Shown in pieces: positions 2,809 through 63,765 of a stretch of DNA of 64,000 bases. The translations under genes were made by a program, and so were the position numbers. Source of the stretch: Candidatus Omnitrophota bacterium (lineage in GTDB: Bacteria > Omnitrophota > Gorgyraeia > Zapsychrales > Zapsychraceae); the NCBI GenBank assembly GCA_050250375.1, contig JBFWOS010000001.1, forward strand, positions 407,090 through 471,089. The letters run 5' to 3'. The notes beneath the pieces are model-generated. The model saw only the letters and a list, made by a program, of their open reading frames with translations. It did no database searches and was not told the origin of the DNA. How positions within the stretch are numbered: position 1 is the first letter of the stretch; every line of letters begins with the position of its first letter.

Positions 2809-2813
2809 GCAGG

Positions 2814-29308: not shown

Positions 29309-30200
29309 TTATCCTCGCGGATGAAACTCCCGATGAACTGACTTTAGTCTTTCTTTGTCAACATGAGTATAAATCTGTGTCGTCGAAATATCCGCGTGCC
29401 CCAACATCTCCTGAACAGACCTTAAGTCGGCACCATTCTCCAATAAATGAGTAGCAAAGGAGTGTCTTAACGTATGCGGTTTAATTTCCTTCTTGATATT
29501 GGCCTTCTTCGCATGTTGTTTGATAATCTTCCAGATACTTTGCCGGCTGATTCTTTTTCCTAATCGGCTTAAAAACAATTGAACGGGCATTGCATTCTTG
29601 GCAAGCTTCACCCGAACGTTTTCACAATAATTAATTACCGCCTCTTTGGATCGTCGACCGATAGGTATAATTCGTTCTTTGTTTCCTTTTCCGATGCACC
29701 GGACAAAACCGACACTTAAGTCTATATTTTCTAGCTTCAAGTTCGACAATTCAGACACCCGCATACCACTCGCATAAAACAACTCTAAAATGGCTTTATC
29801 ACGAACGGCCTGCCACCCTTTCCCTTTAGAAACGTTGATCATAGATTCAATTTCCGAGGCTGTCAGCACATCCGGAATACGTTTCCAAAGTTTCGGTGTT
29901 TCCACTAAGTTGGTGGGATCTTCTTTGGCTAAACGCTCTCTGACCAAAAACCGGTGAAACGTCTTTATTGCCGCCAATGCTCTACAAATAGAGTTGGTTG
30001 ATAACTTCTTCTCCTTTTGATCGTACATAAAGTCTGTCACATGCTTTCTAACGACTGAATCCGCCTGAAAAACACCATTCCTCTTTAGAAATTGGGCGTA
30101 CTTCAACAAGTCCCTCCGGTATGCCAATAGAGTATTATTGGCTAACCCTCTTTCAACCGCAAGATAGTTTATAAATTCTTCAATATTCTTTATGAGCATC

Positions 30201-30220
<20 letters not shown>
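29309..30220 (-). CDS. Tyrosine recombinase XerC/XerD
   Basis: C-terminal R…HxxR…Y catalytic region (LRHSFATHLLENGADLRSVQEMLGHADISTTQIYTHV). It is chromosomal-type, and ftsK is nearby. Confidence 0.85.
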
Positions 30221-32986
<2,766 letters not shown>

Positions 32987-39830: not shown

Positions 39831-39935
39831 TAGTATTATATTATTACTATAAATAATATAGTCCTTTTTTGGTTTGTACTATATTCGAAATGATTAAACT
39901 TGTCAAGGAATTTGTCCTGCCCTATAATACCTTTT

Positions 39936-40403
39936 ATGACGAATGAAATGAAAGTTGCTCAAAAGCTTAAAGTTAGGAAGAAAACCCTGGCTCTGGCCGA
40001 ATCTTGCAGCGGAGGGTTGCTTTCCCACCGTTTGACCAATATCCCGGGCAGTTCACAATTCTTTTTTGGAGGGGTCGTCTGCTACAGCAACACATCCAAA
40101 ACCAAACTTCTTGGCATTCCTAATATGATCATCAAGTCCAAGGGTGCCGTCTCAAGTGATGTTGCTATATTGATGGCCAAAAATGTGAGGAAATTATTTA
40201 AGTCTGATTATGGCGTTGGAATAACGGGGATCGCCGGTCCGGATGGAGGCTCAAAATCAAAACCAGTCGGACTCACTTTTGTTGCTGTAGCCTCCTTAAA
40301 CGAAGTCCTTTGCATCAAATGCCAATTTCAAACAAACCGTGCCTCCAACAAACAACATGCCACAACGCAAGCATTAAAATTACTAGATGAAATTATTCTT
40401 TAG
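39936..40403 (+). CDS. CinA C-terminal domain protein (NMN deamidase PncC-like)
   Basis: LALAESCSGGLLSHRLTNIPGSS…GGVVCYSN…GITGIAGP. Start is taken at the ATG (MTNEMKV); the track begins at an upstream CTG. Confidence 0.8.
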   Translation: MTNEMKVAQKLKVRKKTLALAESCSGGLLSHRLTNIPGSSQFFFGGVVCYSNTSKTKLLGIPNMIIKSKGAVSSDVAILMAKNVRKLFKSDYGVGITGIAGPDGGSKSKPVGLTFVAVASLNEVLCIKCQFQTNRASNKQHATTQALKLLDEIIL

Positions 40404-40417
40404 GCCTGCTAACTCAC

Positions 40418-42769
40418 TTGAAAAATCCTCTTGATTATAACAAACTACCGCACCCAAAAGAAAAACACCTATTTCTTTTAATAGTAATCCTCGAATTTCT
40501 TCAACTAATCTATTGCGTAATGTCTAACCGCCTGGTTGTTCACGACACATTTTTCCGTTTTTATATGCAATATTATTATCTCAACACCTATGTTAACTAT
40601 TTGGAATTTCCTTTTTGGATTCCTTACTTGACACATGGCACACTCGCGACTCCATGGCAAGGACTTGTAGGAATCCATGGGATCTTTAACAACACACTTT
40701 TTCTAACCGGAAATATTCTGAAATATGTTAATTTTTTACCCATATTCTATATGGGCGTTTTCTTTGACCGGTTAGTCCTGTTACTCGGAACATGGTATTT
40801 TTCAAAACGTTTATACAACTCCCCCCTAGTGTCATTCTTTGTTACTACCAGCATTTTAATTTCAAGCGTTTGGGCAAGTCAAATTCATCTCAATTTTCTT
40901 TTTTACTATGCAATCCCTCTCATCATTTATTTATTCCATCGTTTTCTCGAAACACAAAAATGGCGATATTGTTTTTTAGCGCTGAATCTTTTCAGCCTTC
41001 AATGTGTTGATAAACTGTTCTATTTCTTACCGGTTGTCAGTTTGACCATCTCATTGTATTTCTTTTTTTATGCCCTTCTTAATTTCCAGGAAGTGTCCAG
41101 CCACATAAAAAAAATTAAATTTAATTTGAATGGAATATTCTGTCTAGCTCTAGTTCTAACATCCGCGCTTGTCGTCTTTTATTTGGTTAAAATAGGCATG
41201 GCTGGCGATATCGTTAAAAATGTTTTTCAAAGAAATGAAGACGGTAGTGTTAATTTGAATATATTCCTCACTTACTCCCAAGATAATAGTCTAACGAAAT
41301 GGGCAGAACTTCTGCTTGGACTATCGATTAAGAACGACACCACTCTTTATTGCGGACTATTAATCCCACTAATGGCCTTATTTGCCCTCTCATTTAATTT
41401 AAACCGGAAAAGCCTCCCTTTGATTCTAACCGGTTTCACTCTTTTCTTATTTAGTCTTGGCTCAATCGTTTCCATATTCTTTTATCATAGCTGGCCGACC
41501 ATGAAATTTTATAGACACATATTCCAAATCGTTTCAATCGTTCGACTTTTTTTGTGTTTATTTTCCGGCTTCGGGTTCTTGAAATTATTTGAGTTTATCT
41601 TTTCGCAAACGCGCTCCCGTCTAGAATGTATATGGCTAGCAACTACCTCTCTTGGCGTTCTAATCGCTGGTTTGATTTTCTTCAATCAGGCAGGAAACAG
41701 CACCTACATTGTTGAATTCATCAAGCCCTTAACTTACGACACAGATTTAAACCTACTTGCTGGTAATAGCAGCCATTACTATTCATATTTTCGATTCTTA
41801 GGGATTAAGTATATTCTTTGTTCTTTACTGGTATCTTCGTTGTTATTCTTGAACAGGCCATCGAGAAAATGGGTTGTTTTTCTTTTAATTATATTTCATT
41901 TATTAGATGGATACATCTATACTCTAAAAGAATTTAATAACAGAACTGTAGCTATATCCCCCAAACAACTTTCACTTACCCAATTTCAACCAATAATTTA
42001 TAATAATAGGCGTTCTCAAGATGAGTTTTCATTATTTAACAGTCGTTTTGATCTGTTAACACCGGAGTTACTGTCCAAAAGCATGCTCAGCTGGAATATC
42101 CATGCGCTCATGTTTAATGACCCCTTTTATTCACAGCTAAGAACAGACCATTGGTTAAAACCGTATGATCAGTATACTACTATTGACCCGCTTGGATTAA
42201 AGAATGCAACAAAGAAAAAGTCTGGAATAACGGAAAATAAAATCCAATTCTTCCGGCAAGCATACTGCTCGGATAGCACCAAGACATCAAGAGTCATGGC
42301 CCTCCCAGAAAACGATGGCAACAATTTATTTCTCGAGTGTTTACCCGACGAACCTCCAACAAATCTTCTCAGCAAAGATTGGGAGGTACAATCAGCATTG
42401 AGATCAAATGACAGACTTTCTCTTTCCCCCATTATAAATTTTTTCAGTTCTAACAGAATTGAAATTGAAGTTTATAATCCGAGTAAACAACCCATCTGGC
42501 TCTTTTATAGTGATGTTTGGCACCCGTTTTGGAAAGTACAAGTCAATCATAAGGATTCACCTCTTTACAAAGCGGATATAGCATACAAAGCTGTTTTACT
42601 TGTTCCTGGGACTAATAAAGTCCTTTTCTATTTCTCTGCATCCACTTGGAGACTTCTAACCTTTTTAATTATTCTTAATTCTTTTTTTTGGTTCTGTTAT
42701 ATAATTTATTTATTAAAGTCTACAATTTTCCAAAATGACTCTGAAAAGGCAAAAAAATTACATCTGTGA
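40418..42769 (+). CDS. Large polytopic membrane protein, YfhO-like (GT-C-type) candidate glycosyltransferase
   Basis: 783 aa. About 13 TM helices fill the first ~480 aa, followed by a ~250-aa soluble domain ending …WHPFWKVQVNHKDSPLYKADIAYKAVLLVPGTNKVLFYF, then a final TM helix. This is the YfhO-family architecture. Confidence 0.45.
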   Translation: MKNPLDYNKLPHPKEKHLFLLIVILEFLQLIYCVMSNRLVVHDTFFRFYMQYYYLNTYVNYLEFPFWIPYLTHGTLATPWQGLVGIHGIFNNTLFLTGNILKYVNFLPIFYMGVFFDRLVLLLGTWYFSKRLYNSPLVSFFVTTSILISSVWASQIHLNFLFYYAIPLIIYLFHRFLETQKWRYCFLALNLFSLQCVDKLFYFLPVVSLTISLYFFFYALLNFQEVSSHIKKIKFNLNGIFCLALVLTSALVVFYLVKIGMAGDIVKNVFQRNEDGSVNLNIFLTYSQDNSLTKWAELLLGLSIKNDTTLYCGLLIPLMALFALSFNLNRKSLPLILTGFTLFLFSLGSIVSIFFYHSWPTMKFYRHIFQIVSIVRLFLCLFSGFGFLKLFEFIFSQTRSRLECIWLATTSLGVLIAGLIFFNQAGNSTYIVEFIKPLTYDTDLNLLAGNSSHYYSYFRFLGIKYILCSLLVSSLLFLNRPSRKWVVFLLIIFHLLDGYIYTLKEFNNRTVAISPKQLSLTQFQPIIYNNRRSQDEFSLFNSRFDLLTPELLSKSMLSWNIHALMFNDPFYSQLRTDHWLKPYDQYTTIDPLGLKNATKKKSGITENKIQFFRQAYCSDSTKTSRVMALPENDGNNLFLECLPDEPPTNLLSKDWEVQSALRSNDRLSLSPIINFFSSNRIEIEVYNPSKQPIWLFYSDVWHPFWKVQVNHKDSPLYKADIAYKAVLLVPGTNKVLFYFSASTWRLLTFLIILNSFFWFCYIIYLLKSTIFQNDSEKAKKLHL

Positions 42770-43482
42770 ATAATATGAATTTCCTTCAAATCACTAAACG
42801 CATCTTACTGTTGAGCGGAATAATATTATTTTCTATTACAGTCGTTACATTGTACTTTAGCATGACCATAAATGTTCCCCCGATCCTACTTATCAAAACC
42901 TTTGTAAATCAAGGTTATGTTTTGCACCATAACCTGGTACGCCCCTGCTCTGCATTTACTTTAAATTTTAATATTTATATATATTTTGTTTTGTTCTTTT
43001 CTACAGCTATTGCATTCATTTTCCAAAAAACTATTGTCAGAAATCTTGAGTTCACCTTTCAACAATTTATTTTTTGTATAATAAGCGTCTTATTCACTTT
43101 AGTATCTATGAACCAACTGTTTAACTTTCAATATTATTTTAAGTTCGAACAACAATTATTCGGAAACAAATCTCTTAGGGAAAAAAATTCTAATCTTTAT
43201 GAGGGAATTGTTTACAGATACTCCATCTTTTGTCATAATTTTATAAATGGCGCCCAAAATGCTCAACTAATTACTGATCTGGATCTGAACCGAGAACCCG
43301 GCATGCTGGATCACCGGATGCTGGCGTATTACCTATATCCGATCGACATCCGTAATGTCCGAAGAAAAGCCCCCGACTACCTGCTATTCTTTATGAAAAG
43401 AAACGCCAGCGATCATGTCCCTGATAACTTTAAAATAATCGCTGTGATAAATAAGGATAATTTGATCGCAAAAAGAAAATAA
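42766..43482 (+). CDS. Cassette 1 small subunit: 3-TM protein with the conserved C-terminal 'DPGML-HR…YYLYPIDIRN' domain
   Basis: Paralogous to 45786..46586 and 48130..48870. The track start is a GTG; the first ATG is at 42775. It is translationally coupled to the following gene. Confidence 0.5.
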   Translation: MNNMNFLQITKRILLLSGIILFSITVVTLYFSMTINVPPILLIKTFVNQGYVLHHNLVRPCSAFTLNFNIYIYFVLFFSTAIAFIFQKTIVRNLEFTFQQFIFCIISVLFTLVSMNQLFNFQYYFKFEQQLFGNKSLREKNSNLYEGIVYRYSIFCHNFINGAQNAQLITDLDLNREPGMLDHRMLAYYLYPIDIRNVRRKAPDYLLFFMKRNASDHVPDNFKIIAVINKDNLIAKRK

Positions 43483-43485
43483 AGC

Positions 43486-44871
43486 ATGGAAACGTTCATC
43501 CTAATACTGAATACATTAATCTTCCCAACGGTCTTCGGCTATTACCTCATCTGTTTATTGGATAACAACCAACCCTTCCCCTTCTCAGTCAAAATTGCTA
43601 TTGGATACGGCCTTGGTTTAGGTTGCCTTACCCAGTGGATGTTAATTTTATGCACCCTAAATATCCCTTTATCTTTTACAGTAGTTATTTCTCCCTTATC
43701 AATTCTCCTAATGTTTGTCTTCATAAAAATTAAATGCAAAAAAAGAATCTTGGGACCAACGGACGAACAATCTCAGGGGCTAAAATTAAATTTCTTATCA
43801 ATTCTACTCACAACCTATATACTTTTGTGTCTTGTATTTATTTTCTGGAGGACTTTCAACATACCTTTGTCTACGTGGGATGCATTTTCGTATAATGGCT
43901 TTGTCGCAAAAGCCATTTATTTTGAAAAATCATTATATTACTTGCCTAATATGCCTCATTACGAATACCCCCTGCATGCCCCTTTTATGCAAGTCTGGGC
44001 GTCCTTGTGTCTGGGGGAGTGGAACGATCTCTTTATCAATATTTTCTTCCCCTTTTATCTTCTCTTTTTCTTGGTTTTCTTATTTTATTTCTTAATTCAA
44101 TTTACTAGCCGTACATGGGCACTTCTCGGCCTAGCGCTTATTGTTTCTTCAAACTTATTGGTTCAACACGCTAGTATCGCGTATCGAGACATCCCGTTAA
44201 TGTACTACGTTAATATTTCGTTGTTGCTTTTAATTCTCGCCAATAAAGACGACGGATCGCGGAAAAAATTATTTTTATCCGGATTAATGGCGGGTATCGC
44301 TACTTCTGTCAAATTGGACGCTACAGGATATATCGTGGTGTTAACCTTTATCTTGTTATTCATGCTCTTTCTGAATAACTCAACCGCCACAAAACAAAAG
44401 ATTATTAATTTCCTTCTTTTTACTGTTCCTTGTTATTCGATCTTACTTTTCTTCAATATATATAAAATTCTAGTTGTGGAACCCAAAGCGCCTCAAATAA
44501 CTGGAGAAAAATTGAGCTTTGATCTTTATTCAGTCAAACTCAAATTCGGTGTTGAAGCACTAACACGATTTAATACCGTTGTAGCGAGAATCATGGACAA
44601 CTTATTCTTAAGCGGGAATTGGGGAATTGTTTGGATAATCTTCTTTTTTAGCTTGGTCCATTTACAAAAGGCAGAAAAATCGCTTGAAATAAGAATACTG
44701 TTAGTGGCGTTAATTGCCTTTTTCGGTTTACAAATAGTCGGGTATACGTTTACCCAATATTATTATTGGATTGCCGACACACATACGTCATTATCCCGGC
44801 ATTTACTCAGCCAGTTTCCTATTGTTGTTGCTCTAATTATACTTTTAAATGGACAAAAAATACAACCATAA
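43486..44871 (+). CDS. Cassette 1 large subunit: ~12-TM polytopic membrane protein (GT-C-like candidate)
   Basis: Conserved motifs shared with its two paralogs: FGYYLI, WDAFSY…AKAIYFEKS…YP, HASIAYRDIPLMYY, LSGNWGIVW. Confidence 0.55.
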   Translation: METFILILNTLIFPTVFGYYLICLLDNNQPFPFSVKIAIGYGLGLGCLTQWMLILCTLNIPLSFTVVISPLSILLMFVFIKIKCKKRILGPTDEQSQGLKLNFLSILLTTYILLCLVFIFWRTFNIPLSTWDAFSYNGFVAKAIYFEKSLYYLPNMPHYEYPLHAPFMQVWASLCLGEWNDLFINIFFPFYLLFFLVFLFYFLIQFTSRTWALLGLALIVSSNLLVQHASIAYRDIPLMYYVNISLLLLILANKDDGSRKKLFLSGLMAGIATSVKLDATGYIVVLTFILLFMLFLNNSTATKQKIINFLLFTVPCYSILLFFNIYKILVVEPKAPQITGEKLSFDLYSVKLKFGVEALTRFNTVVARIMDNLFLSGNWGIVWIIFFFSLVHLQKAEKSLEIRILLVALIAFFGLQIVGYTFTQYYYWIADTHTSLSRHLLSQFPIVVALIILLNGQKIQP

Positions 44872-44876
44872 CTCGA

Positions 44877-45752
44877 TTAAGACTTTACCAACAATAAATT
44901 CACATACCTTTCGCCGCGACACATTTCAATAATCTCTTCATTTTTGCATTGCCCGATGGTTCGTTCATGATCGTTGATTACAGAAATCTTAAATCCATGC
45001 TCCTCGATCAATTTAAGAAACTCAATCGGTTTAGACCGATAATGCGTAAAAACATCCGGAAAAAACTCGCAGAAAATAACTAAACTCTTATGACGGCTTA
45101 AAAAACTTTTCATCCCTTCGAATGCCAAAGGTTCCGCCCCTTGAATATCCATCTTGATTACATCGTATCGTTCATCAGTTTTAAAAAACTCGTCTAATTT
45201 TATTGACTGCACAGTAAAGGATGTCCTCTGATCACCCGAATCAAAAATTCGATGATCCCCTCTATTCTCTTCACAAAAATATAACTTTAACTCCCCCTTT
45301 AAATTTGATACCGCGCCCTGAAATACAGTCACATTTGCACATAAGTTTACATCTATATTTTTCTGAAGCAACCGATAGTTTTCCGGGTCCGGCTCAAACG
45401 CTGTTACGTGGCCTTCTTTACCAACCCATTTGGAAATTTGTAACGTATGATATCCTATGTTGGCTCCAATATCCAATACCTTCATGCCCGGCTTTATATG
45501 TTCTTTCATTAATGTTGTTTCATAGTCCTCTAGGGTGGCATATTTCCAAAATAACATGGCTGCTATTCGGTCCATTGTGTTTCCGTACATTATTTGTCCA
45601 CGGACAACGACCGCTAGATCTTTCCTTCGTTTCAATATTTTGGCGAGCATTCTTAGAAAAGGCCTAAACCAAGCTTGACGGGACAAAACATACAAGACCC
45701 TGAGGATAAAATAGACTGTCGACTTAAAGATGTATGCGCCGGTTATTTTCAC
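44877..45752 (-). CDS. FkbM-family SAM-dependent methyltransferase
   Basis: MKVLDIGANIGYHTL…AFEPDP…IKMDIQGAE. Confidence 0.8.
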   Translation of the reverse strand: MKITGAYIFKSTVYFILRVLYVLSRQAWFRPFLRMLAKILKRRKDLAVVVRGQIMYGNTMDRIAAMLFWKYATLEDYETTLMKEHIKPGMKVLDIGANIGYHTLQISKWVGKEGHVTAFEPDPENYRLLQKNIDVNLCANVTVFQGAVSNLKGELKLYFCEENRGDHRIFDSGDQRTSFTVQSIKLDEFFKTDERYDVIKMDIQGAEPLAFEGMKSFLSRHKSLVIFCEFFPDVFTHYRSKPIEFLKLIEEHGFKISVINDHERTIGQCKNEEIIEMCRGERYVNLLLVKS

Positions 45753-45785
45753 TGAATAGGAGAATGATAGATCTTTGTTAATTGA

Positions 45786-46586
45786 ATGCGCTGTACTATA
45801 TTGGAAATGATAACCCTTGTCAATAAAATTGTGCTGGCCTATAATGATTTAAATCGTATTAAAAACAAAGAAAGCATGAACAGATCCATTCTAAAATATT
45901 ATATTGCCCTCAATATACTTACTTTTTATCTTTTATTGAGCGGCCTCGCATTATATATGAAACTTCCAGAAAAGCATCTATTTGGTTTTCTGACAGAAAC
46001 TTCGTTCAAGCCGCACCAAAATATAATGCTCTATGGACAATTAAATCATATCCCCTTTCCAATATTCTTGTATGTTGCCATATTTGTCTTAACCATCATC
46101 TTATGGGTTTTTAATCGAGTGATCCATTCTGCGAATCCGAACAACTATCCTCTCGACTGCGTTCGGACTTTTTTCCTAATAAGCACCCTGTCAGTATTCA
46201 CGTTTCTATTAATAATACAAACAATATGTATATCTAAGGTTTGGGGCAAGTCTTTCGAACTTTTCGCAAATAAGACGGAAGTTGAAAAATTTCATGGATC
46301 AACCGTACAACAAAGCTTAATTATGGCTGAATTCTGTAAAAAATTCGCTCCTGGCACACAAAAAGCCAAATTCGAGACTGACCTGGATATCACGGAAGAT
46401 CCGGGCATGTTAATTCACAGGAGCTTTGCCTTCTACCTCTATCCCATTGATATCCGAAATATTTACCGCGGCGAGCCAAATTTATGGATTGCATTTCAAA
46501 AAAAAGAGGCAATTCGACATGTCCCCCGCGGATACAAAGTCCTCGGCATATTGGATGACCAAAATATAATAGCCATGAAAGAATAA
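45786..46586 (+). CDS. Cassette 2 small subunit (paralog of 42766..43482)
   Basis: C-terminal DLDITEDPGMLIHRSFAFYLYPIDIRN. The stop overlaps the next start (TAATG). An alternative start at M31 is possible. Confidence 0.5.
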   Translation: MRCTILEMITLVNKIVLAYNDLNRIKNKESMNRSILKYYIALNILTFYLLLSGLALYMKLPEKHLFGFLTETSFKPHQNIMLYGQLNHIPFPIFLYVAIFVLTIILWVFNRVIHSANPNNYPLDCVRTFFLISTLSVFTFLLIIQTICISKVWGKSFELFANKTEVEKFHGSTVQQSLIMAEFCKKFAPGTQKAKFETDLDITEDPGMLIHRSFAFYLYPIDIRNIYRGEPNLWIAFQKKEAIRHVPRGYKVLGILDDQNIIAMKE

Positions 46587-47962
46587 TGGATTTGCTATCG
46601 GTTACATTGTATTTATTAATCCCAACCACGTTGGGGTATTTCCTCGTAACCCTGCTCAGTTGGAAAACCCCCCTTCCATTCTTCGTAAAATTTATGCTTG
46701 GATATGGCATTGGAGCTGGCCTTTTAACCCACTGGGCGGTTATTCTCAGTTATTTCAAAATACCTTTTTGTGCAGTGTCAATCAATGTTCCGATCTTAGC
46801 CGTTACTTTACTTCTCTTTTGCTTAATTGCCAGAATAAAAAACAAGCCAAACTTAAAATTACTCAAATACAAACTAAAATTCGATACTATAAATTCCATA
46901 TTTCTCTTATTCAGTATTTACATTATATGTTTTATTTTTTGGTCTGGCACAAATATACCTATATCCGAATGGGATACCTATTCCACATTGGGACTAAAAG
47001 CAAAAACCATTTATTACGACAAATCCTTGAATTATTTACCGTATATCGGAAAATTTAATTACCCCATTCACTTAGAATTAATGCTTGCCTGGCTTTCATC
47101 TTGCCTTGGATACTGGGACAACACTGTCATAAAATTCGTTTTCCCAATGTCCTGCCTGGCCTATCTGGTCATACAGTATTATTTCTTAAGGCACTTTACT
47201 TCTGCTCGTTGGGCCTTATTTAGCATCGTATTACTTTTGTCTTCAGCATTTGTCGTTTATCATTCTTATATTTCATACCGGGACATTACCATGATGTTTT
47301 ACAACTGCACAGCCATTCTCTTAATTATTCTTTGGTATAGTCAAAAGCAGAATATGTATCTTGTCTTGGGAGCATTATTCTCAGGAATGACATCATTTAT
47401 AAAATTGGAGGGCTTCGGATATCTTGGCATTCACAATCTTCTGGTTTGGATGCTTATGTATTACATAAATTTTATTGACACGAAAAAAAAGACTAAATTA
47501 ACCATCCTGTTTGGAACCATCAGCTTCGGGATGTATGCACTTTTCATGTTTTATCGAAAACTTTACATCCTTCCTTTTGTACCACCGGAATTGCTTAATT
47601 CCGAACATTTTAACCTTTCACACCTCACTTTAAACCTCTCTGCCGACACTTTGTTCAGGATAAAAATCGTTATGAGACGCTACATCACGAACTTCTACTT
47701 AACCGGTAATTGGTCACTTGTATGGTTGTTTTTTCTTATCAGCGTTCTCCAAATATCAAACAAAAGAATATCTATGGAAATTAAAGCGTTTTTCTTTGTT
47801 TTAGGATTATTCTTTGTGGTATATCTTTTTTCTTATATCTTTACACAACATTACTTGTGGGTTGCATTTAAAGCCGATGTATTATCCCGATCTTTGCTCC
47901 ATATTTTCCCACTCATCACCATTTTAATTCCTTTATTAAATGTCCCGGAAGAGGTGAATTAG
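46586..47962 (+). CDS. Cassette 2 large subunit (paralog of 43486..44871)
   Basis: LGYFLV, WDTYST…AKTIYYDKS…YP, HSYISYRDITMMFY, LTGNWSLVW. Confidence 0.55.
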   Translation: MDLLSVTLYLLIPTTLGYFLVTLLSWKTPLPFFVKFMLGYGIGAGLLTHWAVILSYFKIPFCAVSINVPILAVTLLLFCLIARIKNKPNLKLLKYKLKFDTINSIFLLFSIYIICFIFWSGTNIPISEWDTYSTLGLKAKTIYYDKSLNYLPYIGKFNYPIHLELMLAWLSSCLGYWDNTVIKFVFPMSCLAYLVIQYYFLRHFTSARWALFSIVLLLSSAFVVYHSYISYRDITMMFYNCTAILLIILWYSQKQNMYLVLGALFSGMTSFIKLEGFGYLGIHNLLVWMLMYYINFIDTKKKTKLTILFGTISFGMYALFMFYRKLYILPFVPPELLNSEHFNLSHLTLNLSADTLFRIKIVMRRYITNFYLTGNWSLVWLFFLISVLQISNKRISMEIKAFFFVLGLFFVVYLFSYIFTQHYLWVAFKADVLSRSLLHIFPLITILIPLLNVPEEVN

Positions 47963-48129
47963 GCCAATGGAGCGCCCCAATGAAACCTGGCCACCATTTT
48001 GCATCAGAAAAGTTAATTTCTTTACAAAATCTTGTTAACATAAATAATAGTGTTATAAAATTACCTTACAAATAATATCCAAAACCCAATACAAAAATAT
48101 TAAACCATAAAGAAATCCGGGACATCGAT

Positions 48130-48870
48130 ATGTTCAAAATAGAAAAAAAAGATATCCTACTCACTTGCGCAGCATTCTCACTCTTTCTACTGCCAATTAT
48201 TTGCATGATGTCTTTCGCACTCGATATTCCTATTTCGACCGCAGTAACATTGATTCAGGCCAAACTATACAGGCCACATTTCAACATTTTTGAAGTCTAC
48301 CAAATTGGCGACGTTCATCCATTAAAAGCCCTATATATCGTATTACTTCTAACTGCACTCATTCTCATACTTTTCTACAGGATATCTCTTCCTAACAAAC
48401 TTTCAAAATATGCCCCACAACTTATATTTCTTACATATCTTCTGGGAATTCTAACAGTTGCAACCTTAAACTTTGTCATGCGAATAAAATATTATAAACA
48501 TGACCTGAAACTTTATCATGGAAAAACCTTAGATGAAAAAAACTTTCTTTTAAACCATGAGCCTTATCTTTTTGTTGAAAAGGTCCGGAATGTACTATCC
48601 GGTCGTCATAGTGGAGAATTCATCACAACCGAAAATCTTCTAGAGGATCCCCACATGACAACACACCGGATACTGTCTTTTTACCTCTATCCCATTATTT
48701 CATTACGTCTAGACAACAATACCCCAAAAGACATATTTATCTACTATCATACTGATGATTCTCGACTAAGGATACCTAACGATCAGAAAATACTGACCAC
48801 TTCCAATGACCTTAGTCTTACATTAACAATCAAAAATAAGGATTCATCCATACGTGATATTAATTTCTAA
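48130..48870 (+). CDS. Cassette 3 small subunit (more diverged paralog)
   Basis: C-terminal LEDPHMTTHRILSFYLYPI. It overlaps the next gene by 17 nt. Confidence 0.45.
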   Translation: MFKIEKKDILLTCAAFSLFLLPIICMMSFALDIPISTAVTLIQAKLYRPHFNIFEVYQIGDVHPLKALYIVLLLTALILILFYRISLPNKLSKYAPQLIFLTYLLGILTVATLNFVMRIKYYKHDLKLYHGKTLDEKNFLLNHEPYLFVEKVRNVLSGRHSGEFITTENLLEDPHMTTHRILSFYLYPIISLRLDNNTPKDIFIYYHTDDSRLRIPNDQKILTTSNDLSLTLTIKNKDSSIRDINF

Positions 48871-50251
48871 TATTCTGATTAGTTTGCTTATACCCCTTTG
48901 CTTTGGGTATTTAATCTTACTTAAATTATGTAAGTTTAGATTGCCATTGCCTCTTGAACTATCCATTGGATTTGGAACTGGATTTGGACTGTTATCCATT
49001 TGGATGTTGTGCTTAGATATTCTTAATCTTCCGTTCAACCGCACGAACATTAGCGCACCAATATTGATCTTATCTTGTGTTCTTGCAATAAATGTAATGA
49101 AAAGCAAGAAAAACAAAGAAAAACCTCTCCTGTTTAACCAAGAAACTCCGATTACCAATCAATTATCTGATTTTTTTCAAATTACGATTATGGGCATTCT
49201 AATTACATATATCCTATTGAATATTTTCTATGTATATTGGAGAGCGTTGACGTTTCCTGTATACTGCTGGGATGAAATCTCAACTATTGCGTTTAAGGCC
49301 AAAGTTTTCTTCCACGAAAAATCTATCCCCGAATTGAACTTACTTCCCCATCAATCATATCCGCTTTTAACTCCTCTAGTCGAGTCTTGGACAGCTTTTA
49401 ACTTAGGCTATTGGAATGACAGTTTAATTAAGATAATTTTTCCTTTAATTTTCTCAGCGTACTTATGCACTCATTATTATTTCCTTTGTCTCAATACGAA
49501 TCGACGGTGGGCTATTTGGGGGGTAGCATTATTGCTCTCAAGCAACTTCTTTTTATTTCACGCAACAATCGCCTATCGAGATTTCATTCTCATGTATTAT
49601 ACGTGTTCAGCGATTATCTTGTTGTTGTTCTGGCGGCAAACTCGTTGCAATTCATTTCTTTTCCTATCGTCGCTATTCTCAGGATTTGCAACATTTACAA
49701 AACTTGAAGGAACAGCCTACATGTTAATCTTTCTGATTATTTTTCTAATAATAGAAGTTAAAAATCAAACGATCAAGGCAACCAGAAGAATTAAAAACGC
49801 ACTTATTTTCACAATTCCAAGTTTATCCTTAGCATCCTTATTTCATTTATATAAAATATTCCATAATGCCGAAAAAGATGGTCTCGGTCACATAGACAAA
49901 ACTCATTTTGAAGTTTCTTTTGATAAAGCCTCACTGACACCCCAAATCCTCAGCAGCTTTTCTGAAAATCTATTCCTTTCAGGCAATTGGAACCTGCTAT
50001 GGGGCGCTTTACTTATCACTCTTCTACTGTCCTTAAGAAGGCCAAAAACGTTTGAATCTAATATACTATTAACCAGTTTATTTTTATTTTTTGGGCTGCA
50101 TACCTGTGTCGCCGCCTTCTCTTCAAATTTCATCTGGATTGCTGGGGAATTAAATACCACCACGTTATCTAGACTAATCCTGCACTTCTTTCCGTTGGCA
50201 GTTTTGGCGATTATTCTAATCAATTTTTCTTTATTGAAAGACAGTGATTAG
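48854..50251 (+). CDS. Cassette 3 large subunit (paralog of 43486..44871)
   Basis: FGYLIL, WDEIST…AKVFFHEKS…YP, HATIAYRDFILMYY, LSGNWNLLW. Confidence 0.55.
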   Translation: MILISNILISLLIPLCFGYLILLKLCKFRLPLPLELSIGFGTGFGLLSIWMLCLDILNLPFNRTNISAPILILSCVLAINVMKSKKNKEKPLLFNQETPITNQLSDFFQITIMGILITYILLNIFYVYWRALTFPVYCWDEISTIAFKAKVFFHEKSIPELNLLPHQSYPLLTPLVESWTAFNLGYWNDSLIKIIFPLIFSAYLCTHYYFLCLNTNRRWAIWGVALLLSSNFFLFHATIAYRDFILMYYTCSAIILLLFWRQTRCNSFLFLSSLFSGFATFTKLEGTAYMLIFLIIFLIIEVKNQTIKATRRIKNALIFTIPSLSLASLFHLYKIFHNAEKDGLGHIDKTHFEVSFDKASLTPQILSSFSENLFLSGNWNLLWGALLITLLLSLRRPKTFESNILLTSLFLFFGLHTCVAAFSSNFIWIAGELNTTTLSRLILHFFPLAVLAIILINFSLLKDSD

Positions 50252-51030
50252 GTTGTTTTTTGAAGTTCAATTTTACAAAACATTCCCACCCACGAATTTA
50301 AAGGTGAAATTAGGACTTCAAGAAATTTAACCAAAGGATATGTGCATGACGGCACAAGTTGTCTCATTGAGACGCCACCACTGAGCAAATATCGAATAGG
50401 TGTATGATTTTGGTATGATTTAATCTTAAGAGAAGGATACTCTTGTTGAAATTTGGCGCGATCCCTAAAAAATATTATCCACGGGAGTGCTCCATTGGCA
50501 TCTGACATCGGGCCATCACCTTCAATATTCCACCCGGAGGCCGGATCAAATTGCTCGTGATGGAAATTCTGAAACACGAATCTGCTCCATATCGTATTCG
50601 CCGGCTCAATCATAACAATTCTTCCATTGACTTTAAGACAGCGGTCCATTTCGGTTAAAATTCTTCGAGGATTCTTTATGTGATGCAAAACATCAATCAT
50701 TAGAAATGCATCGACACTATTATTTCCAAACGGCATCGCCTCAGCGGAGAAACAAAGATCAATCCCCTTTAAATCAAGTACATCTGAGGTGAAAACTTTT
50801 GGATTGATTTCCTTTATAAACCCGCCCCCACTTCCTAATTCTATAAACTTTCCGTTAGGGAATTGTTGAATAATTTTCTTAAATATCAGATAATTTTCAT
50901 TATAGATTTTCGTTAGAAAGGGTTTATTTTTGATAATACGGGAATGTAATTCAGTGGTACGTGGATCATCCAGACTTGTTATCGTATCAACTTCTGGGAG
51001 TTTCAACCATTTTTTTAGGTGTTCAATCAT
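50248..51030 (-). CDS. Class I SAM-dependent methyltransferase
   Basis: ELGSGGG…VDAFLMIDVLHH…GRIVMIEP. Confidence 0.75.
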   Translation of the reverse strand: MIEHLKKWLKLPEVDTITSLDDPRTTELHSRIIKNKPFLTKIYNENYLIFKKIIQQFPNGKFIELGSGGGFIKEINPKVFTSDVLDLKGIDLCFSAEAMPFGNNSVDAFLMIDVLHHIKNPRRILTEMDRCLKVNGRIVMIEPANTIWSRFVFQNFHHEQFDPASGWNIEGDGPMSDANGALPWIIFFRDRAKFQQEYPSLKIKSYQNHTPIRYLLSGGVSMRQLVPSCTYPLVKFLEVLISPLNSWVGMFCKIELQKTT

Positions 51031-51098
51031 TACTTTATTATTGCTGTAGCTGGTTTTGTCAAGGACAACATTCTTGTTAATGCATAATATGTGAAAGA

Positions 51099-51833
51099 TT
51101 AATTCCCTTTCTTTTCAGCCGTTATATATAGTGAACCCGAAATCTCCTTAAGCAAGGCTGCCTTTTCCAAGACATTACCGAACTTGGAGACAATAGGAAT
51201 CAAGACTTCTGGTGTTAAGGGATGCAGAAAATCAAACGGTTGGATTCTAATATTTGTAAAATGACACTTTTCCAATAACCCTAATAATTGCCACCGCGAG
51301 AAAGCTGTTTCATCAGGGCTTACTCGCGCCAGCTTTCGAATAAATTTAAAACTTCGCTCCAAGAAAATTTGCGGATTCAATATATTGGGTTCAGTAAAAG
51401 AAATACCCCCTCCAGGTTTAAGAACCCGGTGGCATTCTATTAAAGCCTTTTCAATGTCCAAATGATGTAGAACCGAACTCCCTATAACAGCATCAAATTC
51501 CGCATCCCTATAAGACAATTCATAGGCGTTTTCAAGTTTAAAAGTGACATTTGAAGAAGTCACACGGTTCCGGGCGACCTCCAGAAGATCCGGTGAAATA
51601 TCATTTGCGATTATGTTCGCGCCGCTTTGCGCCAAATATTCTGTGAAATATCCAACACCACATCCCAATTCTAACACCGTCATACCTTTCAAAATATGCC
51701 TGGTGAGCATTTCAACACGTCTTTGTCTACGAATCTGTCCAGCTGGAGTTTCCCAATACCATAAGGTACCAGACCAGGATTCTTTCAATAGTTTTCCATG
51801 TTCAATTTCATTCTTAATGCGCTGATCAGACAT
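51099..51833 (-). CDS. Class I SAM-dependent methyltransferase
   Basis: VLELGCGVGYFT…FDAVIGSSVLHHL…LKPGG. Confidence 0.8.
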   Translation of the reverse strand: MSDQRIKNEIEHGKLLKESWSGTLWYWETPAGQIRRQRRVEMLTRHILKGMTVLELGCGVGYFTEYLAQSGANIIANDISPDLLEVARNRVTSSNVTFKLENAYELSYRDAEFDAVIGSSVLHHLDIEKALIECHRVLKPGGGISFTEPNILNPQIFLERSFKFIRKLARVSPDETAFSRWQLLGLLEKCHFTNIRIQPFDFLHPLTPEVLIPIVSKFGNVLEKAALLKEISGSLYITAEKKGN

Positions 51834-51840
51834 GGCAGGA

Positions 51841-53274
51841 CTAATCTTCTCTTTTAATATAGAATTCTCGGCGGGGAACCAAAATAAGTTCTCTAAATCC
51901 TCTTATACACGCTGCCAGCAAATGCATACCGTGCTTGAAAGATCTCATTTTTGATTCTCCGGAAACCCGTGATTTATAATGAACCGGGACTTCCATGATT
52001 TTACTTCCCAGTTTAGCAGCTCCAAATAACAGGTCAAAATCTCCCCACTTGTCTTTTCCCCACTTTATGCGTTTGAAATCTTTCTTATAAAGAGCTTTCG
52101 TTCCGCAAAGTGTATCTGTCAGATTCTGTTGAGTAATAAAACTCATAATCCAACCAAAAATTTTATTCCCGAATAAATTAATCATACGCATAGCCTGGTC
52201 TTCCATCGGATAGACAAGTCGTGTCCCATTCACAAATTGACAGAGCCCTTTGTTTAATGGGTTAAAAAATCGTGGGAGCTCTTCAGGCGGAGTTGAAATA
52301 TCGGCATCCAAGATCATGATTATTTCTTCCTCCGCAGCATCAAATCCGGCCTTAACAGCCTGGCCTTTCCCGCGATTCGGGCTATAATCAATTAGTTTTA
52401 AATTCGGAAATTCAGCCTGCAAGGACCGGACTTTAGCCGCTGTTCCGTCTTTACTTCCGTCATTGACAACAACAATCTCCGTTCGTTTACCCATATGAGG
52501 TACCCGTCGAATAGCATCCTCAATATTCCCTTCTTCATTATAACAAGGGATGATGACGGAACATCCACATCCCAAATCCGTTTTATTTTCAGGCTCAGGT
52601 TGGATCGTAAGATACTGGGTTGAAGAAAGCAAACTGAATGGCCATAACCGGATTCCTACCGAATTGGCTAAATATGATAAAAACGGAATATATTTTGGAA
52701 AAAGCAACAAGTGTCCATAATAACTGACAGAAAAATCCATTAACTCTATAACTTTAAAGAGACTGCGCCGTTCAATAAAGTTATGCGGACCTTCCGGCAT
52801 CTTTGCATTGATTTTTTCCATGAACATCAGGATCGGGTCCCACCATGGATTAATCGTTGTGAGAAAAATCTTGGTCGTTGGTTTACAAAACTTGTAGGCA
52901 CTTCGGAATACATCCATGACATCGTATACATGATCAACGATATCGACCATAATAATATAGTCAAACTTTTCATCCAAGTTAAAATCTTCCACCGGTGAAT
53001 GAATAAATTCATACTGGGGGAATTTCTTTCTGGCAACCTTGAGCATTTCTTCACTGAGATCCACCCCAACCCCCCTTGAAGGCTCCATATATGCCAAGAT
53101 TTCTCCCGTACCGCATCCAAATTCAAGAACGGAACTTCCTTTGGGAATCATCTGTGAAATAAAAGCCTTAAGGGTATTGTAATAATACGCATTTTTTTGC
53201 TTCCAATAGTCGTAATTCGGGGCAATTTTATCAAAATGTTGCCGGACTTCATCTTTGGTCATTATAGGTGTCAT
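51841..53274 (-). CDS. Fusion protein: N-terminal class I SAM methyltransferase plus C-terminal GT2 polyprenol-phosphate glycosyltransferase (DPM1/CsbB-like)
   Basis: N-terminal VLEFGCGTGE…DYIIMVDIVDHV. C-terminal SVIIPCYNEEGNI…VVNDGSKDGT…ILDADIS…DTLCGTKA. Confidence 0.75.
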   Translation of the reverse strand: MTPIMTKDEVRQHFDKIAPNYDYWKQKNAYYYNTLKAFISQMIPKGSSVLEFGCGTGEILAYMEPSRGVGVDLSEEMLKVARKKFPQYEFIHSPVEDFNLDEKFDYIIMVDIVDHVYDVMDVFRSAYKFCKPTTKIFLTTINPWWDPILMFMEKINAKMPEGPHNFIERRSLFKVIELMDFSVSYYGHLLLFPKYIPFLSYLANSVGIRLWPFSLLSSTQYLTIQPEPENKTDLGCGCSVIIPCYNEEGNIEDAIRRVPHMGKRTEIVVVNDGSKDGTAAKVRSLQAEFPNLKLIDYSPNRGKGQAVKAGFDAAEEEIIMILDADISTPPEELPRFFNPLNKGLCQFVNGTRLVYPMEDQAMRMINLFGNKIFGWIMSFITQQNLTDTLCGTKALYKKDFKRIKWGKDKWGDFDLLFGAAKLGSKIMEVPVHYKSRVSGESKMRSFKHGMHLLAACIRGFRELILVPRREFYIKRED

Positions 53275-62536: not shown

Positions 62537-62905
62537 TTAAGAAGATTTCGCAATCTTCTTTTTGGTGGATTTTTTCGTTTTATCCGTTGAGTTCTTGCGT
62601 TTAAGCTTTGTCTGCAAGGATTTTTGTTCCTGATCAATCCCCTTATACTCTTCCAATAACTTTTTTAATAGAGGGCTTGGACTTGCAGGGTTTCGCAATT
62701 TTACAAATTCTTTGCCAATTTGATAATAAAGCTTTTCTTTCTTAAGACCTGCCGTTGTGGCATCAAGTTGAATCTTACTTTGTTTTGTAATCTTAACTAA
62801 TTCAATCTCACCTTTTTTGACAAGTTCGGAGGCCTCTTTACCAAACTTGATTAATTGTTCCTTAGTTTTTTCCCATTCTGTCTTAACATCATAATTTTGA
62901 GCCAT
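62537..62905 (-). CDS. Lysine-rich hypothetical protein (coiled coil plus basic tail)
   Basis: 122 aa with C-terminal …KLKRKNSTDKTKKSTKKKIAKSS. A terminator-like hairpin (AAGAAGAT-TTCGCA-ATCTTCTT) overlaps the stop. Confidence 0.5.
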   Translation of the reverse strand: MAQNYDVKTEWEKTKEQLIKFGKEASELVKKGEIELVKITKQSKIQLDATTAGLKKEKLYYQIGKEFVKLRNPASPSPLLKKLLEEYKGIDQEQKSLQTKLKRKNSTDKTKKSTKKKIAKSS

Positions 62906-63054
62906 TGACCAACCTCCATATTTTCATTTAATAACTTAAATAATCTCAAATACTTAAGTTTATCATTATAACAAGCACATTTAGATTTATGCAATATTTT
63001 TATCAACCAAAGAATTAAGTTGAAAGCATTGATTATTAAAGTTATACTAAAATT

Positions 63055-63291
63055 ATGAAAGATGGACTGATGTTATTCGCTGGGATTGCACTTGTTTTCG
63101 GCTTGATTGTATACGGCATTTATAAATTCACACGAACGAATTATGATGCCCCGCAAAGAACGCAAGAAGAAATCAATCAAGCTTATGAAGAAAAAGTGTC
63201 TTATCAACAACAAATTGATGACGTAGAGCGCCGCAGAAAAGATCTTATGCGTCAACAGAAGCAACGCTTGCGCGATATGCAACGACACTAA
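63055..63291 (+). CDS. Small single-TM protein (hypothetical)
   Basis: 78 aa with TM helix LMLFAGIALVFGLIVYGIY and a charged coiled tail. Confidence 0.4.
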   Translation: MKDGLMLFAGIALVFGLIVYGIYKFTRTNYDAPQRTQEEINQAYEEKVSYQQQIDDVERRRKDLMRQQKQRLRDMQRH

Positions 63292-63309
63292 TTACAAACA
63301 ACTTGCAAT

Positions 63310-63765
63310 TTAGTGGTGTTCACGCGCGACAATAATCCTCCGCGTCATTTCCTCTTCATACAATTTAATGATATTATTTAATTCATTTTCACCCAAAAAA
63401 TGAACGATTGCTTTTTCTATGGCAACGAACCTGTATTTCATATATAGATAATCCTGCGAAAAAATTTTCTTGCCGTCTCCAGAATATTTCTTATTTTGCG
63501 CTTTATCGAATTTCTCAACCTTGTAATTCTCGAAATTTTGGATTAGATGTTTATACTCTTCATTCCCCGACACTGATTTATATTCTTTGGTATTGATTAA
63601 CTCTTCAAACAAATAGTCGTCAACAATCTTTTGTGTAGAATACCGATCAATTCGATCCAACGCCTCCTTAGTTGTCATATAACACCAAATCAAATAGCGT
63701 CGAATCAATTTTTTGTCGTTAACATTCGGATTATTATTCATTTTCTTAAAATCATTCTTTATCAA
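63310..63765 (-). CDS. Hypothetical protein
   Basis: 151-aa ORF with no recognised motif. Confidence 0.45.
   Translation of the reverse strand: MIKNDFKKMNNNPNVNDKKLIRRYLIWCYMTTKEALDRIDRYSTQKIVDDYLFEELINTKEYKSVSGNEEYKHLIQNFENYKVEKFDKAQNKKYSGDGKKIFSQDYLYMKYRFVAIEKAIVHFLGENELNNIIKLYEEEMTRRIIVAREHH

Follow-up and report, generated by a model that had tools for sequence, protein, structure and literature searches.

Introduction

In the three-component systems GtrA/GtrB/Gtr* of Shigella and Salmonella and CsbB/GtcA/YfhO of Bacillus and Listeria, a cytoplasmic GT2 enzyme makes a polyprenyl-phosphate monosaccharide, a polytopic GT-C enzyme transfers the sugar on the outside, and one donor synthase can serve several GT-C paralogues (PMC5836110, PMC7389260, PMC8035078). 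New GT-C families with lipid-linked donors are still emerging, as in the GT136 pentofuranose system of Citrobacter (ORF12/14/15), where an additional extracytoplasmic acceptor-binding domain (CBM) matters to GT-C function (PMC11127046). In eukaryotes, GPI mannosyltransferase I, PIG-M/PIG-X (Gpi14/Pbn1), is a heterodimeric GT-C (PMC12653191, PMC9306709).

Here, we examine positions 40418-53274 of a 64,000-nucleotide stretch of DNA (the window) from a metagenome-assembled genome (MAG) of an uncultured Candidatus Omnitrophota bacterium. Like the three-component systems, this locus follows the scheme of a GT2 donor synthase and polytopic GT-C proteins, with several GT-C paralogues and a YfhO-related protein. 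Unlike them, it has no GtrA/GtcA-type flippase, its GT2 carries a fused SAM methyltransferase, with up to three more alongside, and its predicted GT-C (L), from a family for which no model exists, is always paired with a dedicated small protein (S). The GT136 system, by contrast, has its extra domain fused in cis, a MATE flippase, a phosphoribose-derivative donor and no methylation (PMC11127046). Compared with ArnT (5f15), L is 11% identical, is shorter (461 residues versus 541 in the solved chain) and lacks a soluble domain within its chain. Also absent are the Ara4N pathway genes ArnA, B and D and the ArnE/F flippase of the ArnC/ArnT pathway (ArnC 9hwj, 9bhc, 8vxh), whose lipid A modification has no counterpart to the methyltransferases found here. 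Set against PIG-M/PIG-X, the present system is bacterial, S has three TM helices, and we infer the association of S with L.

Results and discussion

All 11 of the 11 ORFs were found again, and the gene positions and pair junctions of the initial annotation are confirmed. On the plus strand, a 783-aa polytopic protein (40418-42769), whose ORF overlaps that of S1 at GTGA, is followed by three pairs: S1 (42766-43482) and L1 (461 aa, 43486-44871), separated by 3 nt; S2 (45786-46586) and L2 (458 aa, 46586-47962), joined at TAATG; and S3 (48130-48870) and L3 (465 aa, 48854-50251), overlapping by 17 nt. The 783-aa protein had been called YfhO-like. It matches no Pfam model itself, YfhO included, and the label stands, weakly, at the level of its family (1622 representatives), in which 17 of 25 sampled homologues weakly match PF09586 (YfhO; best 2.9e-10) and D43, after TM1, is invariant. 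As its homologues align from residue ~13-19, the long TTG start is favoured over Met35 of the NCBI entry. The gene was found only in the window and in loci L001 and L003. Its product appears to be an accessory to the system and, from Pfam and the family search, a candidate GT-C remotely like YfhO.

A 53-nt bidirectional promoter-like element occurs twice within the 64 kb, where no copy is expected. Copy 1 (39876-39928) lies between ribBA on the minus strand and CinA, the 783-aa gene, S1 and L1 on the plus strand; copy 2 (45793-45845) lies between the FkbM gene (minus) and S2/L2 (plus). The two are ~85% identical over ~55 nt. Copy 1, which reads TTGTCA-17-TATAAT on the plus and TTGACA-17-TATAGT on the minus strand (11/12 each), is present at the equivalent place in loci L001, L003 and L004. 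S2 is 100% identical to the protein AB7S78_11930 of an NCBI Omnitrophota MAG. Its 266-aa ORF is probably over-extended: since the conserved element falls within codons 1-30, where relatives have stop codons, the likely start is Met31 (ATG 45876, 236 aa).

The truly unfamiliar part of the module is the S-L two-gene unit. Across 24 non-redundant loci, S lies directly upstream of 32 of 33 strong L genes, so that the pairs are indeed conserved as neighbours; most gaps measure between -17 and +26 nt, and the largest is +233 nt. The S clade matches the L clade in 24/29 pairs, the mirror-tree correlation lies above 500/500 permutations, and the clades of S and L thus co-diverge. Locus L001 has a separate orthologue for each of the three window pairs, and the 17-nt S3/L3 overlap is kept in the L3-type pairs of loci L001, L010 and L015. 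L3 is the most widespread L clade; in single-pair loci the pair adjoining the methyltransferase-GT2 fusion (MT-GT2) is of this type. The same chromosomal slot holds an S-L pair in 14 of the 24 loci, and MT-GT2 adjoins S-L in 13. Counting against our main reading, the pairs of loci L006, L015, L020, L025 and L026 lie far from any MT-GT2.

Identity among the three L proteins is 31-36% (E 1e-63 to 1e-83), far above chance; between L2 and L1 it is 36% (E 2e-83), and L2 matches the family HMM at E 2e-149. Structurally, 13 TM helices are predicted, against the roughly 12 initially annotated, in an N-out topology consistent with the positive-inside rule that places all conserved polar residues in periplasm-facing loops. 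The window proteins themselves fall below the Pfam PMT_2 model, which 14 of 35 family members match weakly and one distant member (the relative of L027) matches above the gathering score. The searches placed L in no characterised non-glycosyltransferase family; its predicted fold is GT-C, and we regard it as an unmodelled GT-C family.

The MT-GT2 fusion (51841-53274, minus strand) combines a methyltransferase domain (residues ~29-181) with a GT2 domain (~237-455) by Pfam; no TM helix is predicted. Among PDB structures the GT2 domain matches P. furiosus DPMS (5mlz, 2.5e-17), ArnC (2.9e-17) and GtrB (2e-12). In NCBIfam it matches AglJ best (9e-31), followed by a Dol-P hexose transferase (9e-25), at 107 bits against an equivalog cut-off of 325, a match that fixes neither sugar nor lipid. 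By these comparisons the domain is closest to the polyprenyl-phosphate monosaccharide synthases (DPMS, ArnC, GtrB, AglJ), in line with its earlier description as DPM1/CsbB-like. MT-GT2 has the invariant motifs GCGTG and ILDAD; it is 89-95% identical in loci L004 and L001, and no other gene of the neighbourhood is as well conserved. Together with methyltransferases it forms a cassette widespread beyond Omnitrophota (at least 577 metagenome matches), in which adjoining GT-C-like proteins, at 500-850 aa, exceed L in length and lack an S-like partner. Its 126 metagenome neighbours include 26 methyltransferases, 14 proteins of GDP-mannose-dehydratase or epimerase type and 11 PMT_2 GT-Cs. In locus L009, an S-L pair lies next to pathway genes for a heptose nucleotide sugar, to an AglJ-like GT2 and to two methyltransferases.

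Three further methyltransferases, all on the minus strand, accompany the fusion: an FkbM-family enzyme (44877-45752; PF05050 8.8e-21, TIGR01444 3.2e-28) and the class I enzymes MT9 (50248-51030; PF08241 2.4e-11) and MT10 (51099-51833; PF08241 1.8e-25). Pfam upholds these domain calls and that of the GT2, and brings the methyltransferase domains to four, rather than the five initially implied. TM segments are predicted in none of them, and methylation would therefore take place in the cytoplasm. Among few, phylogenetically related genomes, the FkbM gene is restricted to loci with an L1-type pair (4/4), MT9 orthologues lie beside an L3-type pair in each of 7 loci, and MT10 is present in 5/5 multi-pair and 0/8 single-pair loci. 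MT9-like genes flank 29, and MT10-like genes 19, of 80 metagenome MT-GT2 loci.

For a lipid-phosphate-linked sugar that is methylated in the cytoplasm and only then transferred by a GT-C, the archaeal Agl pathway offers a precedent: the SAM methyltransferase AglP acts on a dolichol-phosphate-linked glycan before transfer by AglB. The AglJ match of the fusion is a further likeness; unlike the window system, Agl is archaeal N-glycosylation that builds an oligosaccharide on dolichol phosphate, has separate methyltransferase and GT2 enzymes, ends with an oligosaccharyltransferase and has no S-like subunit. Alternatively, the methyltransferases could act on something other than the sugar donor, such as a lipid, quinone-like molecule or protein, while the GT-Cs transfer unmethylated sugar, the clustering reflecting a shared envelope pathway. 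The class I matches are indeed generic, with UbiG, UbiE/MenG, BioC and phospholipid N-methyltransferase among them, and the phospholipid genes PgsA and PgpA adjoin; these two, however, belong to a conserved housekeeping backbone. We consider this explanation unlikely: across phyla, every relative of the fusion has its methyltransferase domain joined covalently to the GT2, and unrelated metagenome loci with sugar-nucleotide genes and PMT_2 GT-Cs show MT9-, MT10- and FkbM-like genes lined up after MT-GT2.

The S proteins (~240 aa) consist of three TM helices and an alpha/beta domain (predicted structure of moderate pLDDT, 68.7) and are paralogous far above chance (S1/S2 E 7e-30, S1/S3 2e-11, S2/S3 1e-9). 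The positive-inside rule gives an N-in/C-out topology, and the alpha/beta domain probably faces the periplasm. Neither sequence nor structure searches found a relative; S belongs to no known family and is a protein family not previously described. Could S be a dedicated flippase, or a protein that delivers the polyprenyl-phosphate sugar to its cognate L? Three-component systems require a flippase (PMC7389260, PMC11127046), none is recognisable within the window, and S is a small membrane protein, 1:1 and translationally coupled with each GT-C. Nevertheless, conservation sits in the soluble C-terminal domain and is poor in the TM helices, of which there are only three; Pfam and NCBIfam show no similarity to GtrA/GtcA, SMR, MATE or Wzx; and a single donor synthase has no need of three distinct flippases, all of which leaves this role doubtful.

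It is less probable still that S anchors the TM-less MT-GT2 in the membrane or couples it to each GT-C, as DPM3 does for human DPM1. DPMS, ArnC and GtrB have TM helices of their own, and the GT2 equivalent of locus L009 bears its own GT2_TM_C domain, as would fit an anchoring role for S. The C-terminal domain, however, is placed on the periplasmic side, and S is stoichiometric with L rather than with MT-GT2, three S genes here accompanying one fusion. Moreover, lone S-L pairs exist with no MT-GT2 nearby, and S was absent from all 80 loci examined of the at least 577 MT-GT2 relatives. Most likely, S is an obligate accessory subunit of L, and it may contribute in trans an extracytoplasmic module for acceptor binding or stabilisation, which in other GT-Cs is present in cis. 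It is very improbable that L, like PIG-U/GAB1 in the GPI transamidase, has the GT-C fold but no catalytic activity, or that it adjoins MT-GT2 only through incidental housekeeping synteny.

With S as an accessory subunit, the pathway would begin at the cytoplasmic face, where the GT2 domain, by homology, would move a sugar, probably GDP-activated and of manno type, from its nucleotide to polyprenyl phosphate. The fused methyltransferase domain together with MT10, MT9 and FkbM may O-methylate this sugar, either once it is on the lipid carrier or at the stage of its nucleotide precursor, giving one or several differently methylated donors, which a flippase encoded elsewhere would carry to the periplasmic face. 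There, three paralogous transferases, each a catalytic 13-TM L with a 3-TM S whose alpha/beta domain faces the periplasm, and, in this genome, the YfhO-like GT-C would pass the sugar to acceptors in the periplasm or at the surface; candidates are LPS or lipid A, other glycans and proteins.

Conclusion

Each testable element of the extracytoplasmic glycosylation reading passed, and neither the protein families nor the gene neighbourhoods spoke against it. The interpretation as a glycosylation module largely holds; the idea of one indivisible unit does not, as the YfhO-like gene is confined to three loci and the MT-GT2 cassette occurs elsewhere without S-L. On balance, we favour periplasmic glycosylation of the type that uses a lipid-linked monosaccharide donor and GT-C transferases, here probably with methylated donors and two-subunit S+L transferases. 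The gene set most likely attaches methylated sugars to the cell surface.

Results

In the ORF map, the genes of the locus (40418-53274) lie exactly where the initial annotation had placed them, and the overlapping or abutting S/L junctions that it described are found in the sequence. The plus strand carries a 783-aa ORF (40418-42769), followed by three pairs of a small protein with three transmembrane (TM) helices (S) and a large polytopic partner (L): S1/L1 (42766-43482/43486-44871), S2/L2 (45786-46586/46586-47962) and S3/L3 (48130-48870/48854-50251). On the minus strand are an FkbM-type methyltransferase (44877-45752; PF05050, 75 bits), the methyltransferases MT9 (50248-51030; PF08241, 44.6 bits) and MT10 (51099-51833; PF08241, 89.9 bits), and MT-GT2 (51841-53274), a fusion of Methyltransf_23 (PF13489, 63.8 bits) with Glycos_transf_2 (PF00535, 1.5e-29). 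Pfam thus returns the proposed FkbM protein, two class I methyltransferases and both halves of the fusion, with FkbM, MT9, MT10 and the methyltransferase domain of the fusion all above the gathering score. The three pairs are, as proposed, true paralogues, L1-L3 sharing 31-36% identity (E 1e-63 to 1e-83) and S1-S3 24-30% (E 1e-9 to 7e-30).

By Pfam, the flanks and other scanned ORFs of the window are housekeeping genes (riboflavin operon, CinA, BaxI, PgpA, PgsA, a MiaB-like enzyme, RodZ, FtsK, PNPase, the dcw genes MraW and FtsA, LigA and Fab genes), among which the locus forms the only plus-strand block. G+C is lower in the locus (0.34-0.37 at window positions 40000-50000) than in the 50 kb around it (0.38-0.43), a dip that may be no more than a consequence of the hydrophobic, T-rich codons of membrane proteins. 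Elsewhere in the window, ORFs of 354 and 511 aa (1744-4349), of 168 aa (30201-30707) and, toward the end, of 122 and 151 aa (62537-63765 region) have no Pfam match, a XerC/D-type tyrosine recombinase (29309-30220) adjoins LigA, and a scan with Rfam detected no RNA family.

Exact matches (100% identity) to S1, S2 and the 783-aa protein occur in an NCBI MAG that is labelled Candidatus Omnitrophota bacterium. Unlike these neighbours, L1 has no match at 100% in the protein collection (best 74%), while its ORF is intact in the window. The NCBI locus tags are numbered such that only a single gene fits between S1 and S2, so the deposited annotation probably lacks one of L1 and FkbM or treats it as a pseudogene.

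A 53-nt element, GTACTATATTnGAAATGATnAnnCTTGTCAAnnAAnTTGTnCTGnCCTATAAT, occurs exactly twice in the window (39876-39928 and 45793-45845), each copy preceding a plus-strand unit of the locus. It consists of two near-consensus sigma-70-like promoters pointing in opposite directions from a common palindromic -35 box, its core is kept at equivalent places in three other loci (L001, L003 and L004), and it could serve as a common regulatory module. The ORF starts of S2 (ATG 45786) and CinA (TTG 39900) overlap this promoter-like element. Because relatives carry stop codons within the S2 extension, S2 probably starts at ATG 45876 (236 aa), and CinA, whose relatives are 155 aa long, probably also starts later than the TTG. 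For the 783-aa protein, NCBI annotates a 749-aa form starting at Met35. The longer form with its TTG start, which is also present in a Logan assembly, looks correct, as homologues align from residue ~13-19 and the first TM helix spans residues 18-36.

Context look-ups and a scan covering a single genome for each GTDB species yielded 24 non-redundant S-L loci, including that of the window. Those from named genomes are nearly all labelled Omnitrophota, with a few labelled 'uncultured Planctomycetales', and several others are unlabelled metagenome contigs. The proposal that small and large genes are conserved as neighbours was borne out, in that an S gene lies directly upstream of L on the same strand for 32 of 33 strong L genes, with an overlap that is usually 1, 4 or 17 nt. 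The sole exception, in locus L007, has a weak S-like gene directly downstream. S and L clades match in 24 of 29 pairs, and the correlation of their distance matrices exceeds all of 500 permutations. As each pair of the window has its own orthologue in L001, the triplication is ancestral and the pairs duplicate as units. The smallest version, S, L and MT-GT2, is found in three loci (L013, L014 and L019), and S is absent from the distant L-like GT-C loci of other phyla (L029-L034).

In 14 of the 24 loci, S-L occupies the same slot between ribH-ribBA-CinA and BaxI-PgpA-PgsA, which argues for vertical inheritance of the module; a mobile-island origin was rejected on this ground. Relative to L001, identity is 54-56% for S, 61-69% for L and 70-92% for the housekeeping neighbours, and MT-GT2 is the most conserved gene of the locus (95% to L001, 89% to L004).

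Several loci depart from the simple arrangement. Two tandem S genes precede a single L in L016 (8491-11398) and L023 (8375-10978). In L011 (2485-4370), a second L gene behind a shortened S (158 aa) is split into ORFs of 80 and 391 aa, possibly by a frameshift or through decay of the pair. L020 (1-15975) has three pairs, a gene for a 642-aa PMT_2 protein lying between them, and upstream a GmrSD-type restriction endonuclease; MT-GT2 is absent within 16 kb. Very divergent L-like genes have small neighbours with weak S similarity in L007 (6419-9916; downstream, E 4e-7) and L028 (1188-3145; upstream, 6e-6), and in L027 (8090-11305) a 133-aa ORF upstream of L reaches E 0.79, with MT-GT2 following L on the same strand. 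The S family may reach further than the HMMs detect.

L1-L3 are polytopic proteins with a predicted GT-C fold. They have no match in Pfam, NCBIfam or PDB sequences; for PMT_2 (PF13231; GT39/GT83-type) they miss the gathering threshold, with nothing at E<=0.01 or even E<=1. Within the L family, 14 of 35 members show weak PMT_2 matches (best 3e-6), and the distant relative in L027 exceeds the gathering score (32.7 vs 26.1 bits). Judged by these matches, L is related to PMT_2, yet is not a member at the level of the model. L forms a rare family (32 clusters among 5.8 billion). PDB sequence searches with L1, the 783-aa protein, profiles of L, S and the 783-aa protein, and the L027 relative gave nothing meaningful.

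Family-wide hydropathy and K+R counts indicate 13 TM helices in L, running from an external N-terminus to an internal C-terminus. All strongly conserved polar residues (W131-D132, K142, Y161-P162, H228, Y233-R234-D235, K276, N378-W379 and R438) fall in periplasm-facing loops. D132 is invariant, and W131 and K142 are at least 90% conserved; these three lie in a 62-residue loop (123-184) that is periplasmic by the positive-inside rule. L thus shows the GT-C pattern of an acidic residue conserved in a long extracytoplasmic loop behind a TM helix, with D132 as a candidate catalytic or donor site. In the GT-Cs described so far, TM1 is usually followed by the small extracytoplasmic domain (PMC11127046). 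The acidic loop of L comes after TM4, not TM1, which suggests that L has three additional helices at its N-terminus and lacks a soluble domain of its own.

S, also when searched as a profile, has no match in Pfam, NCBIfam or PDB sequences, and is represented by only about a dozen clusters in a large protein collection. By the positive-inside rule, its N-terminus is cytoplasmic and its C-terminal domain periplasmic, and L is predicted to expose its catalytic loops and its N-terminus on that side too. We considered a HAD-like 'TDxD' motif as catalytic in S and rejected it, since S proteins of the pair-3 type lack it.

The GT2 domain, a catalytic domain of GT-A type, had been read as a polyprenyl-phosphate sugar synthase, and its closest similarities are indeed to polyprenyl-phosphate monosaccharide synthases, both in PDB (Pyrococcus DPMS 2.5e-17, ArnC 2.9e-17, GtrB 2e-12) and in NCBIfam (AglJ 9e-31, dolichyl-phosphate hexose transferase 9e-25). 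All matches remain below the NCBIfam equivalog cut-offs that define exact activity (AglJ 107 vs 325 bits, ArnC 65 vs 529), so they do not fix the sugar or lipid specificity. Both GCGTG (SAM motif I) and ILDAD (DxD) are invariant in the fusion, which has no predicted TM helix. MT-GT2 adjoins S-L in 13 of the 24 loci, a context in which L may use a lipid-phosphate-linked sugar donor.

The separate methyltransferases follow the pairs: FkbM is limited to loci with an L1-type pair (4/4), MT10 to multi-pair loci (5/5, versus 0/8 single-pair loci with MT-GT2) and MT9 to positions beside L3-type pairs (7 loci). As none of the methyltransferases has TM segments, they must act in the cytoplasm. We hypothesize that each added S-L pair brings a methyltransferase that would make a distinct donor, a pattern drawn from few and related genomes.

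In L009 (1-16603), an S-L pair adjoins a complete heptose-type nucleotide-sugar pathway (SIS, GHMP kinase, HAD and nucleotidyltransferase) with an epimerase, an AglJ-like GT2 with its own GT2_TM_C, two methyltransferases, a B12-binding radical SAM enzyme (HpnJ-like, 1e-57), paralogous 482- and 486-aa proteins without Pfam match and a PgfS/ArnC-like GT2. This gene content suggests a C- or O-methylated heptose donor.

When metagenomes were scanned with the MT-GT2 alignment, soil, peat, sediment and sludge yielded at least 577 full-length relatives with 36-46% identity over the two domains; 80 loci were kept for neighbourhood analysis (L035-L114). No S was found in these 80 loci, and L-like matches were weak and rare. 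The genes that often follow MT-GT2 are MT9-like (29 loci), MT10-like (19) and FkbM-like (10), sometimes all three in a row. Pfam assigned 26 of 126 flanking genes to methyltransferases, 14 to GDP-mannose-dehydratase-type enzymes and epimerases (best 5e-142) and 11 to PMT_2 GT-Cs (best 3e-17). Large proteins with at least eight TM helices, mostly of 500-850 aa and often several per locus, occur in 39 of the 80 loci, none of them with an S-like partner. Five such 500-850-aa polytopic proteins are present in L062 and at least three each in L056, L049 and L081; some loci encode TPR-containing PMT_2 proteins. The GT-C-like proteins adjoining MT-GT2 outside Omnitrophota are ~100-400 residues longer than L, which fits S supplying a module in trans without proving it.

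The description of the 783-aa protein as YfhO-like holds as a remote, family-level relation: 17 of 25 sampled homologues have weak YfhO (PF09586) matches (best 2.9e-10), while the protein of the window itself gives nothing at E<=1 against that model. Its family counts 1622 representatives, and the invariant D43 directly follows TM1. Of the 80 metagenome loci, 4 have a YfhO-like gene next to MT-GT2. Because the 783-aa protein is confined to the window and the two nearest relatives of the window, we consider it an accessory GT-C rather than part of the core.

Discussion

In this study, the gene arrangement proposed by the initial annotation was confirmed and its interpretation as a glycosylation locus supported. 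The best-supported model is periplasmic glycosylation following the logic of GtrB/Gtr*, CsbB/YfhO or ArnC/ArnT (PMC5836110, PMC7389260, PMC8035078, PMC11127046). Unlike in those systems, the donor synthase here carries a fused methyltransferase and has further methyltransferases beside it, from which methylated polyprenyl-phosphate sugars are predicted as donors. Further, the GT-C belongs to a compact, unmodelled family always paired with a small putative subunit predicted to face the periplasm, and there is no linked flippase: no GtrA/GtcA, SMR or MATE protein was found in the scanned ORFs, which cover most, not all, of the 64-kb window, or among recurrent neighbours of the 24 loci. A flippase may be encoded elsewhere in the genome.

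Four other explanations fit the data less well than this periplasmic glycosylation model. S could itself be the flippase, or a DPM3-like anchor for MT-GT2; the methyltransferases could act on a non-sugar substrate; or L could be non-catalytic. What counts against these readings is how S is conserved, its predicted topology, its stoichiometry with L and, across phyla, the linkage of MT-GT2 to sugar genes and GT-Cs.

For S and L to form a functionally required complex would agree with their adjacency (32/33), start/stop overlaps and co-divergence, all of it genomic evidence. The nearest functional analogue of the pairing would be the heterodimeric eukaryotic GPI mannosyltransferase I, composed of Gpi14/PIG-M and Pbn1/PIG-X (PMC12653191, PMC9306709). 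Other GT-Cs carry fused acceptor-binding domains (PMC11127046), which hints that S might make such a contribution in trans. That S and L evolve faster than their neighbours within a conserved, vertically inherited slot is the pattern expected of a surface-glycan determinant.

Our literature searches turned up neither this locus nor S nor MT-GT2 systems, and we found no account of methylated lipid-linked monosaccharide donors in bacterial periplasmic glycosylation. The combination of MT-GT2, further methyltransferases, sugar-nucleotide genes and a GT-C is a widespread type of system, of which the S-L split is the Omnitrophota-specific form.

GT-C enzymes build or decorate most extracytoplasmic glycans, in LPS modification, teichoic acids, mycobacterial arabinan and protein N-, O- and C-glycosylation. 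To our knowledge, bacterial GT-Cs are regarded as single-subunit enzymes, and a bacterial family whose genes are always accompanied by one for a small, dedicated partner facing the periplasm would introduce a new principle of architecture. A joint reading, which we put forward tentatively and hold to be doubtful as a whole, is that S-L is the first obligate two-subunit GT-C described in bacteria, that its donors are pre-methylated and matched to the pairs, and that the MT-GT2 cassette marks a large unrecognised class of systems. If true, S-L would be a functional analogue of eukaryotic PIG-M/PIG-X, with the extracytoplasmic recognition module residing in a protein of its own that evolves fast and represents a new fold family. 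The donors would be pre-methylated polyprenyl-phosphate sugars, pair 1 being served by FkbM, pair 2 by MT10 and pair 3 by MT9, allowing combinatorial diversification of a methylated surface glycan. Omnitrophota is an uncultured phylum, and S-L would offer a tractable test case of two genes expressible in E. coli. Beyond that phylum, MT-GT2 chemistry may be common, given the abundance of the fusion in metagenomes, and on the joint reading its cassette would define a 'methyl-sugar' class of periplasmic glycosylation across soil and sediment bacteria.
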